A stretch of 64,000 nt of DNA from an uncultured Clostridia bacterium (GTDB taxonomy: Bacteria > Bacillota > Clostridia > TANB77 > CAG-508): positions 66,868 to 130,867 of the forward strand of contig CANEDP010000001.1 in assembly GCA_947426305.1 (NCBI GenBank), in the 5' to 3' direction. Shown here piece by piece: positions 1,055 to 37,219 of the stretch; position 1 is the stretch's first letter; each line of letters starts with the position of its first letter. Below the pieces are notes generated by a model. It saw nothing but the letters and a program-made list of their open reading frames with translations. It ran no database searches and was not told the DNA's origin. Position numbers and translations under genes: made by a program.

Positions 1055-2005
1055 TTATATACTATTAGTATACCATGTGTCAATAATTTTAGTCAAAAAT
1101 TTTAAATTTGTTTGTACTAAATCATTTGTTTCATAATAGTCTATATGATGCTCTATTCTATCTTTTAATTCATTTAAAATTTTTATTTGATTATTTAATA
1201 CTCCCTCACTCGTTATCATTCTTTTATTTAAGTATAGCAGAGTTACTATCTGTTGGATTCTTACGTTAGACATTTTATTATCTCTTGTTTTCTTTGACAC
1301 TCCGATAGATGCTATTTCACTAAGTATTTTATAATTTGCTCTATGTTCTGATGTAGAAGATTTTAAATCATTAATAATGCAATTATTATGAGCGCAGGCA
1401 TTTCTTAATTCTCTAACATTTTTCAATAAATATGCCTCATCTAACATTGCTTTATCTTGTAATCTATTTGCAACAAACATATAAAATTTGATTAATCTTC
1501 CAAACGGAATAATTTCTACAAAAGCCCAAATTGGATATTCATCTCCATACTTTGCTACTAAATCACCACAATAAGTACTTCTTATATTTTTATTTAATTC
1601 GTTTTTTAAATAATCATATTCTCTATTATTTTTTAAATTTTGAACATAATCTTCTACTATACCATAAGCATCTTTGCTGGCTTTTTCCACTTTTGATAAC
1701 AATCTGACTTTAGTATAATGTTCTAAGTCAAGCACAATACTTAACATTGTTTTTCTTAATCTCATGTCAATAATAGAAAGATCTATCAACATTTTAAAAT
1801 CCAAATCTATATATTTACCTTGTTTTTCGCCATCTTCATATTTAGAAAAATTCTTTCTATAAGAAACTAATTTAAAATAGTTATTATTCTTTTCTAAATA
1901 TTTTTCAGCATCATCTTTAGAAAATAATTCAAATTTTACTCCTTTTTCCATCAAATGTTTAACCAGTTCTCCTGCATTCAACATTGGTTTAGATTCTTTG
2001 TACAT
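1055..2005 (-). CDS. Abi_2 family (AbiD/AbiF-like) abortive-infection protein
   Basis: 316 aa. N-terminal ...EKYLEKNNNYFKLVSYRKNF and central VRELRNACAHNNCIIN motifs are typical of Abi_2 proteins. Confidence 0.8.
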   Translation of the reverse strand: MYKESKPMLNAGELVKHLMEKGVKFELFSKDDAEKYLEKNNNYFKLVSYRKNFSKYEDGEKQGKYIDLDFKMLIDLSIIDMRLRKTMLSIVLDLEHYTKVRLLSKVEKASKDAYGIVEDYVQNLKNNREYDYLKNELNKNIRSTYCGDLVAKYGDEYPIWAFVEIIPFGRLIKFYMFVANRLQDKAMLDEAYLLKNVRELRNACAHNNCIINDLKSSTSEHRANYKILSEIASIGVSKKTRDNKMSNVRIQQIVTLLYLNKRMITSEGVLNNQIKILNELKDRIEHHIDYYETNDLVQTNLKFLTKIIDTWYTNSI

Positions 2006-14575: not shown

Positions 14576-15931
14576 TTATTTACTCTCTAATTCTGTTACT
14601 CTTTTTTCTAACATCTGAACTTTTTTCAACAATGGAGTAACAAGCTTTGAATAATCAATCGAATCTGGCACCATTTTTCCATTCACTTCCGCTAAAGTAA
14701 CAACGTTTGGAAATATTTTATAAACATCTTCAGCAATAAGTCCTGTCTGATTCACGCCATTACTTTCTTTTTTATAATCAAAAATTTTGGCTTCCAATTC
14801 ATCAATTTTATTCGCTTCATCCTCTGTCATTTCTCTAATATTCTTCTTATATCTTCTCGAAGATGCCTGAGTAAATGCACTCGCTGTAATTGGCTTATAA
14901 GTATTTATATCAAACATACTTCTAATTGTTAAATGTTCCCCAACTGCCATAACAGCTGCTGATTCTGAATTATATAAATGAAAATTAGTCGATAATAATT
15001 CTGACAGAAATCCTCTTTTCCATAACGCCCCTGCACTTCCTAAATCATACGCATTATTTTCAGCAGGAAAAATATGTCTAGTTTCTATTCCCCCTTCTAA
15101 GGCTCCACCTGCTGTTGGTAAATAATCATGTGTATGTCCTGTTGGAGAAGCTCCAATATTAGCTGGCGTTATATTCACATTTCCTACTCGATATTCTTCT
15201 TCTTTATCTCCCTTAATACCAGTAATCACATTTTTTTGTGCTTCACTCTCAATTCCGTCCAACTTTGCCTTATCTTCTTTACTCATTAACCCATTCTTTA
15301 AAGCAGAAACAATCCCTGTTCCCGCTTTATTGGCTAATAGATTATTTATTTTTTTGCTTGAAAATGTTTGATTGTCAGAATTTTTGCTATCATCAATCAC
15401 ATCAGCCCATTCACAATCAAAATCTTCATCTGTTTTCTTTCTTAAATACTGTCCTTGTAGTCCTTCAACAGGAACTCCTGTACATTCTTGAATTAATATT
15501 TTTAATTGCTCCATTTTCAACATCCATTGTTGAAGTAATGTTGGAAAATGTGATGTCAAAAAATCGTCTGCATTTATTGAACTATTAACAAACATCAAAG
15601 CATTATTTGAATACCAAACAACTTCTTTGTTCGTATTTTCAAAAACAATTTGATATGTTAAAGTTCCATTTACTTTTGTTGTATAATTCGTAACTTTCCA
15701 TGTTAATGTTAATTTTTTATCTATAATATTCTTTTCCAACTCTATCTTATCCATCATTTTTCCAGTTGGTAGAACTGCTATTGCATAAGCCACATATTCG
15801 TCATCTTTAAAATCCAAATTTTCATAAATCGTATTTTCTAATTCAAATATTAATGTATCTGTACCACTTGAAAATTGAGTTAAATTTATAACGCCCGGAT
15901 TTATCAATTTATTTTCTATTATCAAGTTCAT
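14576..15931 (-). CDS. Fiber protein with C-terminal intramolecular-chaperone (peptidase S74-like) domain
   Basis: Start MNLIIENK at 15931 after an AGGAGA RBS. The C-terminal SSRRYKKNI...IFDYKKES...GLIAEDVYKIFP...DSIDYSKLV region with a terminal coiled coil resembles the endosialidase-chaperone domain. Confidence 0.6.
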   Translation of the reverse strand: MNLIIENKLINPGVINLTQFSSGTDTLIFELENTIYENLDFKDDEYVAYAIAVLPTGKMMDKIELEKNIIDKKLTLTWKVTNYTTKVNGTLTYQIVFENTNKEVVWYSNNALMFVNSSINADDFLTSHFPTLLQQWMLKMEQLKILIQECTGVPVEGLQGQYLRKKTDEDFDCEWADVIDDSKNSDNQTFSSKKINNLLANKAGTGIVSALKNGLMSKEDKAKLDGIESEAQKNVITGIKGDKEEEYRVGNVNITPANIGASPTGHTHDYLPTAGGALEGGIETRHIFPAENNAYDLGSAGALWKRGFLSELLSTNFHLYNSESAAVMAVGEHLTIRSMFDINTYKPITASAFTQASSRRYKKNIREMTEDEANKIDELEAKIFDYKKESNGVNQTGLIAEDVYKIFPNVVTLAEVNGKMVPDSIDYSKLVTPLLKKVQMLEKRVTELESK

Positions 15932-16090
15932 TATTTTTTCTCCTTTCCCACAAAAAATAGACACTCATAAAAGTGTCTATTTTCTTACTATTAGTATAAT
16001 ATATTTTTATTATATATTATAACAACCTTCTCGCCTTTAAGCGCCTACTATTACCATTTAGCAATATTGTCTATTCCGCCACTACATTTT

Positions 16091-16291
16091 TTACTCTAAA
16101 ACTTCAATGCTTTTTATTTCGTTTTCTAATAAAAAATACCCTCTATTATCTATTTCATTATCTATATCGATTGAATCAATTTCTGGCTCATTGTCTAATG
16201 CTTGTGTAAATCCTATTACTTTTCCAATATATGTATTATTATTTACAGAAGTTATTTTTACTCGTTTACCTACATAATCTTCTAATTCCAT
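16091..16291 (-). CDS. Candidate immunity protein for the MuF-toxin
   Basis: 66-aa ORF starting 6 nt after the MuF-toxin stop codon, matching the arrangement known for MuF polymorphic toxins. Confidence 0.35.
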   Translation of the reverse strand: MELEDYVGKRVKITSVNNNTYIGKVIGFTQALDNEPEIDSIDIDNEIDNRGYFLLENEIKSIEVLE

Positions 16292-16296
16292 TTACT

Positions 16297-17871
16297 TTAC
16301 TCCTTCCAAAATGGTACTATGTGCGTACCATTTTTACTGTAATGTATCTTAAAGTCATTTGTTTTATGCTCTCCTCTTTTTGAACTTACAGACACACCAA
16401 TCACTTGTTCTGTATGAATTATTTCTTGTTTGCTCCATTTTTTATCTTCTGCAATTCTTATTTCTCCTGTTCCAGCATATTTATCAACTAATTTTTGTGC
16501 ATCTTCTATCGATATTGTTATATAACTTCTACCCTCAATATAGTTATTATGTCCTATTATATGTTTTCCTTGTTTTCCTTCACTGATTGTCTTATCTACG
16601 TTATTGATATATTGCTTTGCTTGTTCTTCTGAATAAATACCTATTTTATCAGCATAATCAACTTTCAGTTGTTTCCAACGCTCTACATCATTATACTTCA
16701 TTTCTTGAAAATTTGCAAACGTTTTTGGCGCTTCATCAGCCAATACATCTCTATATTTTTCATACTGTTTGTAATCAGATGACTTATTTTTATTTATTTT
16801 TATATCATTTTCAAATGCTTTCTTAGTTTCTGGGTCAGAATATACATATTTTTCTAGCCATTCATTGTATGTAATATTTTTCGGAATATAATATGTTTTC
16901 TTAGTCAACGGATCTCTTGCTGCTCTTTCTCCAAACTCATATTCATCTTCAAAATATGGAGCAGTTGTTGTTCTACATCTAACGTGAAAGGGTGGTGCGT
17001 TTACTCCAATTTCAAAATCCTTCACGTCATGTATAGTCCCATCTATTGTTCTACATATTTCTGATGTTTTTAAATCTAATGTTGCTATATTTATATATTG
17101 CTGTACTCCCAAATTGGTAAAACATTCTTTTCTAGATGTACTTGAAAAAAAAGCCGATTCTGTCATTACCAAAGTTCCCGCCTTATTTTTACTGACTTTA
17201 AAATCTTTTGAAATTTTTTCTATTATCTTATCTGGTACTTCACCTAATATAATTGATTGTGTTAAATCTGTTTGCAAAGTATTAATTAGTGACTTTTTAT
17301 TTTTCCAAATTCTATCAGAAAATGTTTGCTCATCAGTTGTCCACGGTTTCGATATTACTTTTTGAATTATACCTAAATCCAATGCTGCAACCTTAAAAGC
17401 AACATTCGTCCCTTTTTGTATTTCATAAGCAGTTTTATAATACGTATCTTTATAAGAATCTATTATAAATTCAGTAGTTGTCTTTTCTTCATTATAATAC
17501 AATTGTTCAATTTGTTCTTGAATCTGCACTTCTAATGCCTCTAATCTAGAAATATGTACTTTTGCACTTGCATTTTCTAATTCTTTTCTCCAAATTAAAT
17601 CCATTCCATTTTCTTGTCCATATTTTATATAATCATCAATATCCCATTGTAATTCTTTTAATTCTTGAACATTTAACCATTTCTTTGCTTCTTTCAAACT
17701 TATTTGATTATTAACTGCAAATCTAACCAACCAATTATTCATTTCTTTTTTTATTACACTCAATGCTTTTTCGTAAGTTTCTTGTAATTCAGTAACATAC
17801 TTTGCATCATTTAGCAATCGTGCTTCTTCCAGTTTTTCAAATCTTTTCGTCCAATATTCTGCATTATTCAC
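16297..17871 (-). CDS. MuF/SPP1 gp7-like minor head protein fused to a C-terminal polymorphic-toxin-like domain (Ntox50-like)
   Basis: 524 aa downstream of portal. The C-terminal ~110 aa (GKQGKHIIGHNNY...AQKLVDKYAGTGE...FKIHYSKNGTHIVP) matches my recollection of toxin-50 domains. Confidence 0.65.
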   Translation of the reverse strand: MNNAEYWTKRFEKLEEARLLNDAKYVTELQETYEKALSVIKKEMNNWLVRFAVNNQISLKEAKKWLNVQELKELQWDIDDYIKYGQENGMDLIWRKELENASAKVHISRLEALEVQIQEQIEQLYYNEEKTTTEFIIDSYKDTYYKTAYEIQKGTNVAFKVAALDLGIIQKVISKPWTTDEQTFSDRIWKNKKSLINTLQTDLTQSIILGEVPDKIIEKISKDFKVSKNKAGTLVMTESAFFSSTSRKECFTNLGVQQYINIATLDLKTSEICRTIDGTIHDVKDFEIGVNAPPFHVRCRTTTAPYFEDEYEFGERAARDPLTKKTYYIPKNITYNEWLEKYVYSDPETKKAFENDIKINKNKSSDYKQYEKYRDVLADEAPKTFANFQEMKYNDVERWKQLKVDYADKIGIYSEEQAKQYINNVDKTISEGKQGKHIIGHNNYIEGRSYITISIEDAQKLVDKYAGTGEIRIAEDKKWSKQEIIHTEQVIGVSVSSKRGEHKTNDFKIHYSKNGTHIVPFWKE

Positions 17872-19415: not shown

Positions 19416-20799
19416 TCTCCCCTTTGATTTGAAAAATAAACACCTTTATTTTTTGGCTCATATAAAGAAAGAACCAAAGCATCTCCGTCTATCTGGAGAA
19501 GTTAGTCCTCGTTTTTTCATTTCTTCTTTTCGTTCCAATTCTATTTTTCCATCACTATTTATTCTGTATTTTCTATTACTTAACTGCGTAATTTGCTTAT
19601 CGTCATATATAAGTTCTATTTCATTACGTTTTAACTTTTCTCTTAATAATCCCCACATTAACCCTGTTGAATTACTAAATTCAACAGGCTCTTCTTGCTT
19701 GTTTTTTCCTCCTGCTCCACCAAAATGGCATTCGTACAATTTGACTGTTGTCCAATTCTTTTCTTTCTTTATTTCTTTTAATCTATCATATACTCCAACT
19801 CCTAAGCCATCACAATCTATCTTAATATGTATTGGTATTCCTATATATTTAAGTTTTAACTGGTTTACTATTTGTATTATTCTACCAGTAACTTGCATTG
19901 TATCATTATGATGTAATACATTAAGTGGTTGCTGATATGTTTTATCAAACATAGTATTTATAACAGTTTCGTCATCTCCATATCTCGCAACATCCACTCC
20001 TAAGTCTATTCTACTTGTTGGATAATTTTTACTTATTACTCTTCTACTGCAATTTTCTGCCCAATCCAATTGTATAAAACTATCTGGCATTGCCTTTGGA
20101 AATTCTCCAGCAACACGAACCCTATATACGTCACTATCCAACCCATACATATCAGTAATATCTTTGATAAAATCTTTTGAAACTCTTCTTGAGTTCTCTC
20201 CAGATACTTTTGATGTGCTATATTTACTTCTATTTTTGTTATGACTATCAAAAAAGAAACCGCTTAATTGAGTAGGATTTCCCATCATAACTAATCTTGA
20301 ATCTTGAGTTGATAAAGATCCTAATACTGGTTCAAATACTGCATCTTTTACTCCGTGATGCTTCATCTATAATATACAATAAATGGTCTGCATGAAATCC
20401 TTGTAAGGCATCTGGTAGGGTCGCTGTTCGTGGTACTGCAAACCAATTTTCTGGATATGCCTTCATATATAGTTTTTCTTGTGTCCACTCTATTTCTGTT
20501 CTTAATGTTGGATTAAGCCATTTTGCAATTTCTGCCCATAAAATGTCATATAGTTGATGTTTCGTAGGTGCTGTGCAAGGTATTTTAGGAAATGGTCTTG
20601 TACACATAAACCAAATAATAAGCCAACTTAAAGCCGTAGATTTTCCAATTCCATGTCCAGACCTTATTGATGTCATTCTATTTTTTGCAACTCTATTTAA
20701 AATATCTGACTGATTTTCATCTGGTATTGCTTTTATGATATCTTGTACAAATTCAACCGGTCTATCTTTATAATATAAAATGGCTTCTGTCGTTAGCAT
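19412..20799 (-). CDS. Terminase large subunit, needs +1 shifts at CGG 20355-20353 and 19487-19485
   Basis: Walker A-like GHGIGKST. Walker B IIDEAS, then tca CGG a, after which the +1 frame gives GVKDAVFEP...MMGNPT. The second site is SPDR, aga CGG a, then +1 gives GDALVLSLYEP...GE*, ending in an ATGA overlap with portal. Confidence 0.85.
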
Positions 20800-37143: not shown

Positions 37144-37219
37144 TGGTGAGCTATCCGCGACTCGAACGCGGGACAACTTGATTAAAAGTCAAGTGCTCTA
37201 CCACCTGAGCTAATAGCCC
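37144..37219 (-). tRNA. tRNA-Lys (anticodon UUU)
   Basis: GGGCTATTAGCTCAGGTGGTAGAGC...CTTGACTTTTAATCAAG...GTTCGAGTC...CCA. Confidence 0.9.

Follow-up and report, generated by a model that had tools for sequence, protein, structure and literature searches.

Why should a minor protein of a phage head end in a domain that resembles ribonucleases (RNases), and what is the small gene that lies directly behind it? Prophages of gut Firmicutes commonly carry MuF toxins, and the question is raised in compact form by a stretch of 64,000 nucleotides (nt) from contig CANEDP010000001.1 of an uncultured Clostridia bacterium, which in its full length we refer to as the window. Here, an open reading frame (ORF) of 524 amino acids (aa) joins a MuF/SPP1-gp7 head protein to an Ntox50 toxin domain and is followed by the gene of an acidic 66-aa protein, a pair that an original prediction had described as a toxin fusion with a candidate immunity gene. 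We consider it very probable that the locus encodes a MuF-family polymorphic toxin together with its immunity gene, within the late head operon of a contractile-tailed prophage that lies next to tRNA genes. This explanation is supported by the identity of the domains, the complete set of catalytic residues, the fold of each protein, the strict linkage of toxin and partner, the swapping of both together and their coupled arrangement, and we infer that the two proteins act as toxin and immunity protein, respectively. The features concerned, with their positions in the window and the evidence on which they were placed, are the following:

16297..17871, minus strand: MuF-Ntox50 fusion gene, 524 aa (ORF list, Pfam, PHROG 115, TIGR01641, same gene called on metagenome contigs)
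16843..17871, minus strand: MuF/SPP1-gp7 core, residues 1-343 (alignment with phiC2, CDMH1, phiCT9441A, FNU_1P and phiCD119)
16588..16842, minus strand: linker, residues 344-428 (alignments, residue numbering)
16675-16719, minus strand: junction motif F385-W399 (FANFQEMKYNDVERW), inside the linker (alignments)
16312..16587, minus strand: Ntox50 (PF15542) RNase toxin domain, residues 429-520 (Pfam, structure alignments, AlphaFold2 model and fold match)
16300..16305, minus strand: Shine-Dalgarno sequence AAGGAG of the 66-aa gene (sequence read)
16091..16291, minus strand: gene of the acidic, Sm-like 66-aa protein, predicted cognate immunity protein (PHROG 1865, linkage, AlphaFold2 model, fold matches, charge)
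15948..15987, minus strand: terminator-like hairpin (AAAAUAGACACU-loop-AGUGUCUAUUUU, then a U run) (sequence, terminator scan, RNA fold)

The N-terminal part of the fusion can be assigned with ease. The original prediction placed an SPP1 gp7/Mu F-like gene after the portal gene, and profile searches bear this out: Phage_Mu_F (PF04233) covers residues 198-303 (E 1.4e-14; 55 bits against a cut-off of 29.6), the NCBIfam model TIGR01641 (phageSPP1_gp7) matches with E 4.9e-24 and PHROG 115 ('minor head protein') with E 6.5e-132. The gene directly before it encodes an SPP1-type portal protein (PF05133, E 2.4e-58), and the GTG start of the 524-aa ORF overlaps the portal stop codon by 1 nt. Proteins that are 100% identical, independently called, occur on 23 metagenome contigs in the same order of portal, MuF plus Ntox50 and 66-aa protein. 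MuF/gp7 proteins reside in the capsid at the portal in few copies, as described for SPP1 (PMC5576092, PMC12226406), and residues 1-343 would constitute a normal minor head protein of this kind, joined to Ntox50 by a linker of about 85 residues.

A toxin-50 type module had been claimed for the last ~110 residues. The module is present, as judged by profile, structural matches and fold, but its extent was overstated, the domain proper comprising residues 429-520. Over this segment the Pfam Ntox50 model (PF15542) is matched in its entirety (model positions 1-92 of 92) with E 7.5e-31, or 1.6e-32 for the isolated tail, and at 107-113 bits against a cut-off of 22.2; the scores of both the MuF and the Ntox50 profile are far above chance. 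To check the module, a hidden Markov model (HMM) search of the tail and a structure prediction had been suggested, of which the former returned the full-model match and the latter the fold of YxiD-CTD and MafB2-CT. Compared with solved structures at the sequence level, the tail matches MafB2-CT (8hhj_B) best (E 2.5e-7) and YxiD-CTD (9v8i_B) as well, while the AlphaFold2 model of residues 409-524 (predicted local distance difference test, pLDDT, 94.1) retrieves with Foldseek YxiD-CTD (9v8i_B; E 6.5e-7, template modelling (TM) score 0.69/0.74, 29% identity) and MafB2-CT (8hhj_B; E 1.8e-5) and, besides these, nothing from the PDB below E 0.6. The Ntox50 fold of the solved members is described as BECR or RNase A-like.

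The predicted active site of the window protein consists of K436, H437, H510, K513 and H517, which align with K446, H447, H521, K524 and H528 of YxiD, the three histidines also being aligned with His335, His402 and His409 of MafB2. These residues are the ones that matter in the characterized relatives: MafB2-CT is an RNase for which His335, His402 and His409 are essential (PMC9970974), and YxiD-CTD is a metal-dependent tRNase for which the same holds for His447, His521, His528, Lys446 and Lys524 (PMC12700104). Within the Ntox50 family, ribonuclease activity has been demonstrated for these two only (PMC9970974, PMC12700104). Across 20 diverse Ntox50 domains K436, H437, H510 and H517 are invariant, as is the column of Q434, and K513 is nearly invariant in an alignment of 53 Ntox50 sequences. 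The published family signature (H, S, K, T, H, K, HxVP; Zhang et al., 2012) is found in the window protein as K436, H437, S449, T504, H510, K513 and H517-I-V-P520, at positions that do not vary, or hardly vary, in the Ntox50 alignments. By its residues the domain, which is basic (isoelectric point, pI, 8.9), looks catalytically intact and would act as an RNase of the His-His-His/Lys type, from the family that also includes MafB2 (RNase) and YxiD (tRNase). A degenerate toxin was considered and ruled out, the full set of catalytic residues being in place.

Turning to the small gene, its position immediately behind the toxin was stated correctly in the original prediction, but the spacing is 5 nt and not 6 nt from stop codon to ATG (TGG AAG GAG TAA agtaa ATG). 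Its AAGGAG Shine-Dalgarno sequence lies within the last two toxin codons, K523-E524, and 8 nt ahead of the ATG; the location of this signal inside the toxin gene and the 5-nt spacing suggest that the two genes are translationally coupled. The terminator-like hairpin is found about 105 nt past the 66-aa gene and ahead of the next gene, with a z-score of -3.5 for the RNA fold of the intergenic segment.

The 66-aa protein matches PHROG 1865, labelled 'unknown function', with E 2e-19. It belongs to no Pfam or NCBIfam family, the Pfam LSM model reaching 16.5 bits against a cut-off of 23.4 and covering the first 30 residues only. A tblastn search against phage records gave no match despite the presence of homologues, the query being short and compositionally biased, and the phage homologues were instead found by reading the ORF downstream of Ntox50 matches and with HMMs. 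They follow MuF-Ntox50 genes in phiC2 (gp05, 55% identity), phiFN37, phiOH2, Javan210, AP45, where the MuF-toxin gene comes after the major head gene and not the portal gene, and CJLB-5. A homologue also follows in two distant Staphylococcus phages, SpT152, which has a MuF-Ntox50 fusion, and PhiSepi-HH1, in which Ntox50 is not on a head protein. In the protein database, a profile search with the family yielded 918 clusters, all of 60-95 aa.

The strength of this linkage became apparent in a genome scan with an Ntox50 alignment, using one genome per species, in which the closest 80 of 499 loci were analysed; the nearest relatives of the toxin come from Clostridium and from metagenome-assembled genomes (MAGs) of Clostridia. 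An ORF of the 66-aa family follows Ntox50 in 79 of the 80 loci, with a start between -10 and +84 nt relative to the toxin ORF's end, and in the remaining one the contig ends 94 nt past the toxin match. Counted by toxin, 88 of the 90 Ntox50 ORFs in these loci are paired with a family member. Fusions of at least 440 aa account for 62/80 loci, with a head part of either Phage_Mu_F or Phage_min_cap2 (PF06152); for the latter type, each with the small gene downstream, loci L040, L045, L056, L065, L073, L074, L082, L090 and L099 are examples.

The pair is also found away from heads. The carriers of Ntox50 beyond head proteins include MafB2, the LXG toxin YxiD, an array with a TNT toxin and LXG-type metagenome loci, and a homologue search with the toxin domain, which returned only proteins of at most 203 aa, proved to have found stand-alone or orphan cassettes. 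In one locus (L015), an orphan Ntox50 cassette and its partner stand in an array behind a 1123-aa TNT toxin and Imm59; in another (L017), a stand-alone pair sits among housekeeping genes, between ispH-rpsA and htpG. Two contigs from termite-gut Bacillota/Defluviitaleaceae MAGs (L092:110-3454 and L098:2683-6036) carry five consecutive stand-alone Ntox50 genes of ~127-163 aa, each followed by a gene of the 66-aa family, here called mini-Sm, with one extra mini-Sm gene at the end. In a prophage of C. perfringens (L013:1856-4567), a NUMOD4/HNH homing-endonuclease gene lies between a Phage_min_cap2 gene and a separate 123-aa Ntox50 gene with its mini-Sm partner, and it looks as if the endonuclease had split a former head-Ntox50 fusion.

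Conversely, no member of the 66-aa family is present at four MuF loci without Ntox50, those of CDMH1, phiCT9441A, FNU_1P and phiCD119. Since the partner accompanies Ntox50 both in and outside heads and is absent where MuF proteins have other C-termini, the ORF, judged by its distribution, goes with the toxin domain rather than with the head. The original prediction, which had put it at the position of an immunity gene with the proviso that it might prove to be a conserved head protein, is upheld on this point; a structural head protein was rejected in view of the pairs that exist without heads and of near-identical head modules that lack both Ntox50 and the small gene. By our prediction, the 66-aa protein is almost certainly the immunity partner of the toxin. 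That the mini-Sm family (PHROG 1865) is the regular partner of Ntox50 in the contexts sampled is a modest new point.

The start of the variable part can be located by alignment with MuF relatives. The MuF core ends at a conserved YNEWxEKYV, at which relatives with other toxins diverge. Between phiC2 and CDMH1, phages of the same genus, 336/341 residues are common up to YNEW(Y/L)EKYV (98.5% identity of the MuF part) and 25/90 beyond it; phiC2 continues into Ntox50 and CDMH1 into an unrelated domain, and the downstream ORF differs as well, so that toxin and partner have been swapped jointly between near-identical MuF genes. phiCT9441A has the same MuF core and then a Toxin-deaminase domain. A variable C-terminus behind a conserved core is, as read from these alignments, the usual anatomy of polymorphic toxins. 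The window protein and the MuF-deaminase of phiCT9441A additionally share, before they diverge, the linker motif K(T/S)F..FQ..KYND...W, and many stand-alone Ntox50 genes begin exactly at this point (MKYN...). We read the motif as a candidate recombination junction.

The predicted structure of the 66-aa protein is consistent with a role as an inhibitor of an RNase. Its AlphaFold2 model (pLDDT 97.2) has a short N-terminal helix and five strands and matches Sm, LSm, Hfq and YaeO proteins in Foldseek with probability 1.0 and TM scores up to 0.74; profile matches to PDB entries of LSm8 reach E about 1e-3 at best. The protein has a net charge of -9, which is also the family median, and a pI of 4.2. 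Between the strands of residues 20-29 and 40-45 lies a conserved, acidic beta2-beta3 loop, ALDNEPEID (~residues 31-39), and the best-conserved acidic residues are D33 in this loop, which is nearly invariant, and E56/E58 ahead of the last strand. Such a strongly acidic surface argues against RNA binding. YxxD, the crystallised immunity protein of the Ntox50 tRNase YxiD, is Sm-like too and inhibits through its acidic beta2-beta3 loop (PMC12700104). The 66-aa protein and YxxD are of the same fold class, and their mode of inhibition is plausibly alike.

Known Ntox50 domains are RNases or tRNases, which their immunity proteins inhibit 1:1. For the window pair we infer that the toxin domain cleaves RNA, that its partner neutralises it by binding, that the fusion is packaged and injected, and that the system has an ecological role. 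The 66-aa protein would most likely form a 1:1 complex with the toxin over its basic active-site face and block access of RNA, as YxxD does with its acidic loop, and would thereby keep the RNA of the producer intact during virion assembly; should the prophage express the immunity gene, lysogens would be protected too. Packaging as part of the head protein would carry the toxin into the next cell along with the DNA, and in a recipient without the immunity protein tRNA or other RNA would be cut and translation arrested. Across the MuF family, the candidate ecological roles are competition between strains, manipulation of the infected cell and behaviour like that of toxin-antitoxin (TA) systems.

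It should be noted that several points weigh against this explanation. Packaging and injection are still treated as hypothesis for any MuF toxin domain (PMC5576092, PMC12226406). A scan for promoters that could drive the immunity gene on its own found 10 sites against 13.8 expected by chance, that is, no signal above chance for expression in the lysogen. The inhibition mode shared with YxxD is an analogy from fold class and loop chemistry: a comparison by hhalign of 68 sequences of the 66-aa family with 15 YxxD-like sequences gave E 0.1 and a probability <1%, and YxxD (9v8i_A) does not appear in the first 50 fold matches of the 66-aa model. The prophage itself, finally, may be defective, since both its integrase and its TerL gene are split, the split of TerL being conserved in a relative; with its integrase in two parts, it may no longer be able to excise.

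Two of these points need some elaboration. The best sigma-70-like site of the scan, TTTGCA-18-TATAAT (10/12 match; 16690-16719, minus strand), consists of the codons of FANFQEMKYN in the junction motif; it was discounted as a promoter, being merely the codons of a conserved motif, with promoter-like sites not enriched over shuffled sequences, and its overlap with the junction may be coincidental. For the YxxD comparison, metagenome contigs supplied YxxD-like genes, located behind YxiD-like Ntox50 cassettes and with first residues that match the published cloning primer. The HMM of the 66-aa family finds these ORFs at E >=0.78, and a short profile alignment puts the 'DN' loops of both families in register (E 0.1, not significant). 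In the absence of a significant relation by either the profile-profile or the HMM comparison, the 66-aa protein was not filed as a member of the YxxD family.

The same anatomy would be expected if Ntox50 served the phage in its own infection cycle, as an RNase for takeover or counter-defence, either injected or made late, that shuts off the host, biases the choice between lysis and lysogeny or destroys a host RNA required for defence, with the Sm-like protein as a timer or regulator. Jamet et al. explicitly left the role of such domains open (PMC5576092), and the tethering of the toxin to a virion protein that the phage's head module itself encodes would agree with it. We nevertheless regard this as unlikely, given that a classical polymorphic-toxin array also contains this cassette and that chromosomes carry it as stand-alone pairs away from any phage, for which a generic toxin-immunity pair is the better fit. 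Those stand-alone pairs and tandem arrays (L017; L092 and L098) do resemble TA loci, and the prophage bears other defence-type genes (Abi_2; DUF3644 with a restriction-endonuclease-like protein), which brings to mind an addiction or abortive-infection-type TA module for prophage stability or the exclusion of other phages, with an incidental fusion to MuF and a toxin that is never delivered to another cell. The 62/80 loci in which the domain is fused to minor head proteins of at least 440 aa, from two Pfam families, are hard to explain without a role in the virion, however, and addiction requires constitutive expression while lysogens probably do not express a gene of the late head operon; such a module seems to us very improbable here. 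We give hardly any credence to a 66-aa protein that, instead of inhibiting the toxin, helps to fold or package it as a chaperone or adaptor, or serves as a small structural protein of the head: its gene lies within the head module and small partner genes of some secreted toxins do encode chaperones, but it co-occurs with Ntox50 where neither head nor secretion apparatus exists and is absent from near-identical head modules without Ntox50, with a net charge of -9 it is complementary to an active site that binds RNA, a catalytically intact RNase in the cytoplasm requires an inhibitor for which no other candidate gene is present, and the only other Sm-like partner of Ntox50 is a proven inhibitor (PMC12700104).

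Building on the polymorphic toxin and immunity gene as the favoured explanation, a broader picture may be drawn, although we put it forward tentatively and would not give it even odds. The acidic mini-Sm proteins of 63-75 aa, for which neither Pfam nor NCBIfam has a model, might form a dedicated immunity family for a large, mostly phage-borne clade of Ntox50 and might mimic RNA through the loops with which Sm proteins bind it. The cassette, from the KYN(D/N)xxxW junction onwards, could move as a unit among Phage_Mu_F and Phage_min_cap2 proteins, polymorphic-toxin arrays, tandem arrays and TA-like pairs, and as a head-tethered tRNase it could be injected to arrest translation in non-immune cells.

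As to the surroundings, the prophage extends from about position 1 of the window to 36.9 kilobases (kb) and has a contractile tail with sheath and tape measure, a head module at 12-21 kb and an ImmA-like protease. The G+C content is ~30%. The head module reads TerS-like protein, TerL, SPP1-type portal, MuF-toxin, 66-aa protein, S74 fibre-like protein, scaffold, decoration-like protein and major capsid protein. The prophage ends at a tyrosine integrase, encoded in two ORFs in different frames (N-terminal SAM-like/central part, and catalytic part; 35757-36852, plus strand), next to genes for tRNA-Thr/Glu/Lys (36946-37219, minus strand), a cluster that probably marks the attachment side. Beyond ~37 kb bacterial genes follow, with dockerin and radical SAM proteins among their products. 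A search of 50,697 phage records gave no near DNA match apart from TerL.

The TerL gene (19458-20799, minus strand) consists of two overlapping ORFs of 155 aa and 302 aa, with the junction near 20332-20366. The frame moves by +1 right after a Walker-B-like IIDEAS, at UCA CGG, where CGG would be a rare codon at ~30% G+C. In bajarodcaudo virus 4 (PQ006095) the same split is annotated for a TerL gene of 83.5% nucleotide identity without any indel, and substitutions downstream of the junction are mostly synonymous in the +1 frame, which points to a conserved +1 frameshift, possibly a programmed one, and not to a recent defect. The same virus (L138:2689-4129) has, after its portal gene, a 206-aa protein and a 194-aa protein with CdiA_C (Bp1026b-type tRNase), a different toxin in the same slot, and its downstream 46-aa ORF is outside the mini-Sm family. 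Between the immunity and scaffold genes of the window lies a fibre-like gene of ~451-462 aa (14576-15964, minus strand) whose product ends in a Peptidase_S74 intramolecular-chaperone domain; the corresponding place is empty in phiC2 and phiOH2, and the gene could be a head fibre or an inserted moron. Other conflict-type genes of the prophage are located at 1055-2005 (minus strand), 32792-33760 (plus strand) and 34966-35556 (plus strand) and comprise Abi_2 in the tail region, DUF3644 with an EC042_2821 restriction-endonuclease-like protein, and a NUMOD4/HNH endonuclease with a helix-turn-helix domain near the lysogeny module.

Fusions of this kind are established in the literature. MuF was listed as a trafficking domain for Ntox50, and phiC2 named, by Zhang et al. 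(2012; PMC3482391), whose catalogue has a '-' as the immunity entry for Ntox50; Jamet et al. (2017; PMC5576092) defined the MuF toxins with Ntox50 among their domains and noted small downstream ORFs. MuF-Ntox50 fusions have thus been known since 2012 and 2017, of which the window locus is a clear new example, compact and intact and with a clearly identified partner, and it leaves the current understanding of MuF and Ntox50 systems unchanged. The regular partner fills the Ntox50 immunity blank of the 2012 catalogue and provides a link to the 2025 finding of Sm-like Ntox50 immunity. In practical terms, annotators could label PHROG 1865 and mini-proteins of the 'LSm family' beside Ntox50 as immunity proteins, and toxin and partner are small enough for direct work on toxicity, rescue and co-crystals.

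Among the systems with which the locus can be compared, Apk2/IapK (with Aph1) from prophages of Streptococcus pneumoniae and Pasteurellaceae has the same layout, with a MuF N-terminus, a toxic C-terminus and an immunity gene directly downstream (PMC12226406). Apk2 is the sole type of MuF toxin with biochemistry, and immunity of the IapK type occludes its active site (PMC12226406). Unlike the window toxin, Apk2 is a (p)ppApp synthetase and not an RNase, and it has two immunity genes, whose proteins are unrelated to the 66-aa protein. MafB2-CT/MafI2 of Neisseria meningitidis B16B6 (PDB 8HHJ) corresponds in the three aligned catalytic histidines, and MafI2 confers immunity by charge-complementary blocking of the RNA-binding face (PMC9970974); MafB2, however, is secreted by the Maf system of a Gram-negative host, and MafI2 is helical at the interface and unrelated to the Sm-like 66-aa protein. 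A further system is YxiD-CTD/YxxD of Bacillus subtilis 6633 (PDB 9V8I), with which the window locus shares the Pfam family of the toxin, its fold, the His triad and two Lys, and on the side of the partner an Sm-like barrel with an acidic beta2-beta3 loop. The differences are that YxiD is an LXG toxin secreted by the type VII system and not a phage head protein (PMC12700104), that YxxD has ~110 aa with two helices and six strands against the 66 aa of the window partner, and that a tRNase activity that depends on metal has been established only for YxiD. The locus of phiC2 (gp04/gp05) belongs to a different phage and host, and the window differs from it in a longer linker, of ~85 residues, that contains the KYND junction motif, and in the additional Peptidase_S74 fibre-like gene and terminator-like hairpin between the immunity and scaffold genes. 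In both, however, the portal gene is followed by a MuF gene with a C-terminal toxin, a small ORF and then the scaffold gene, and gp04 and the window protein share 54% identity in the MuF part and 58% in Ntox50.

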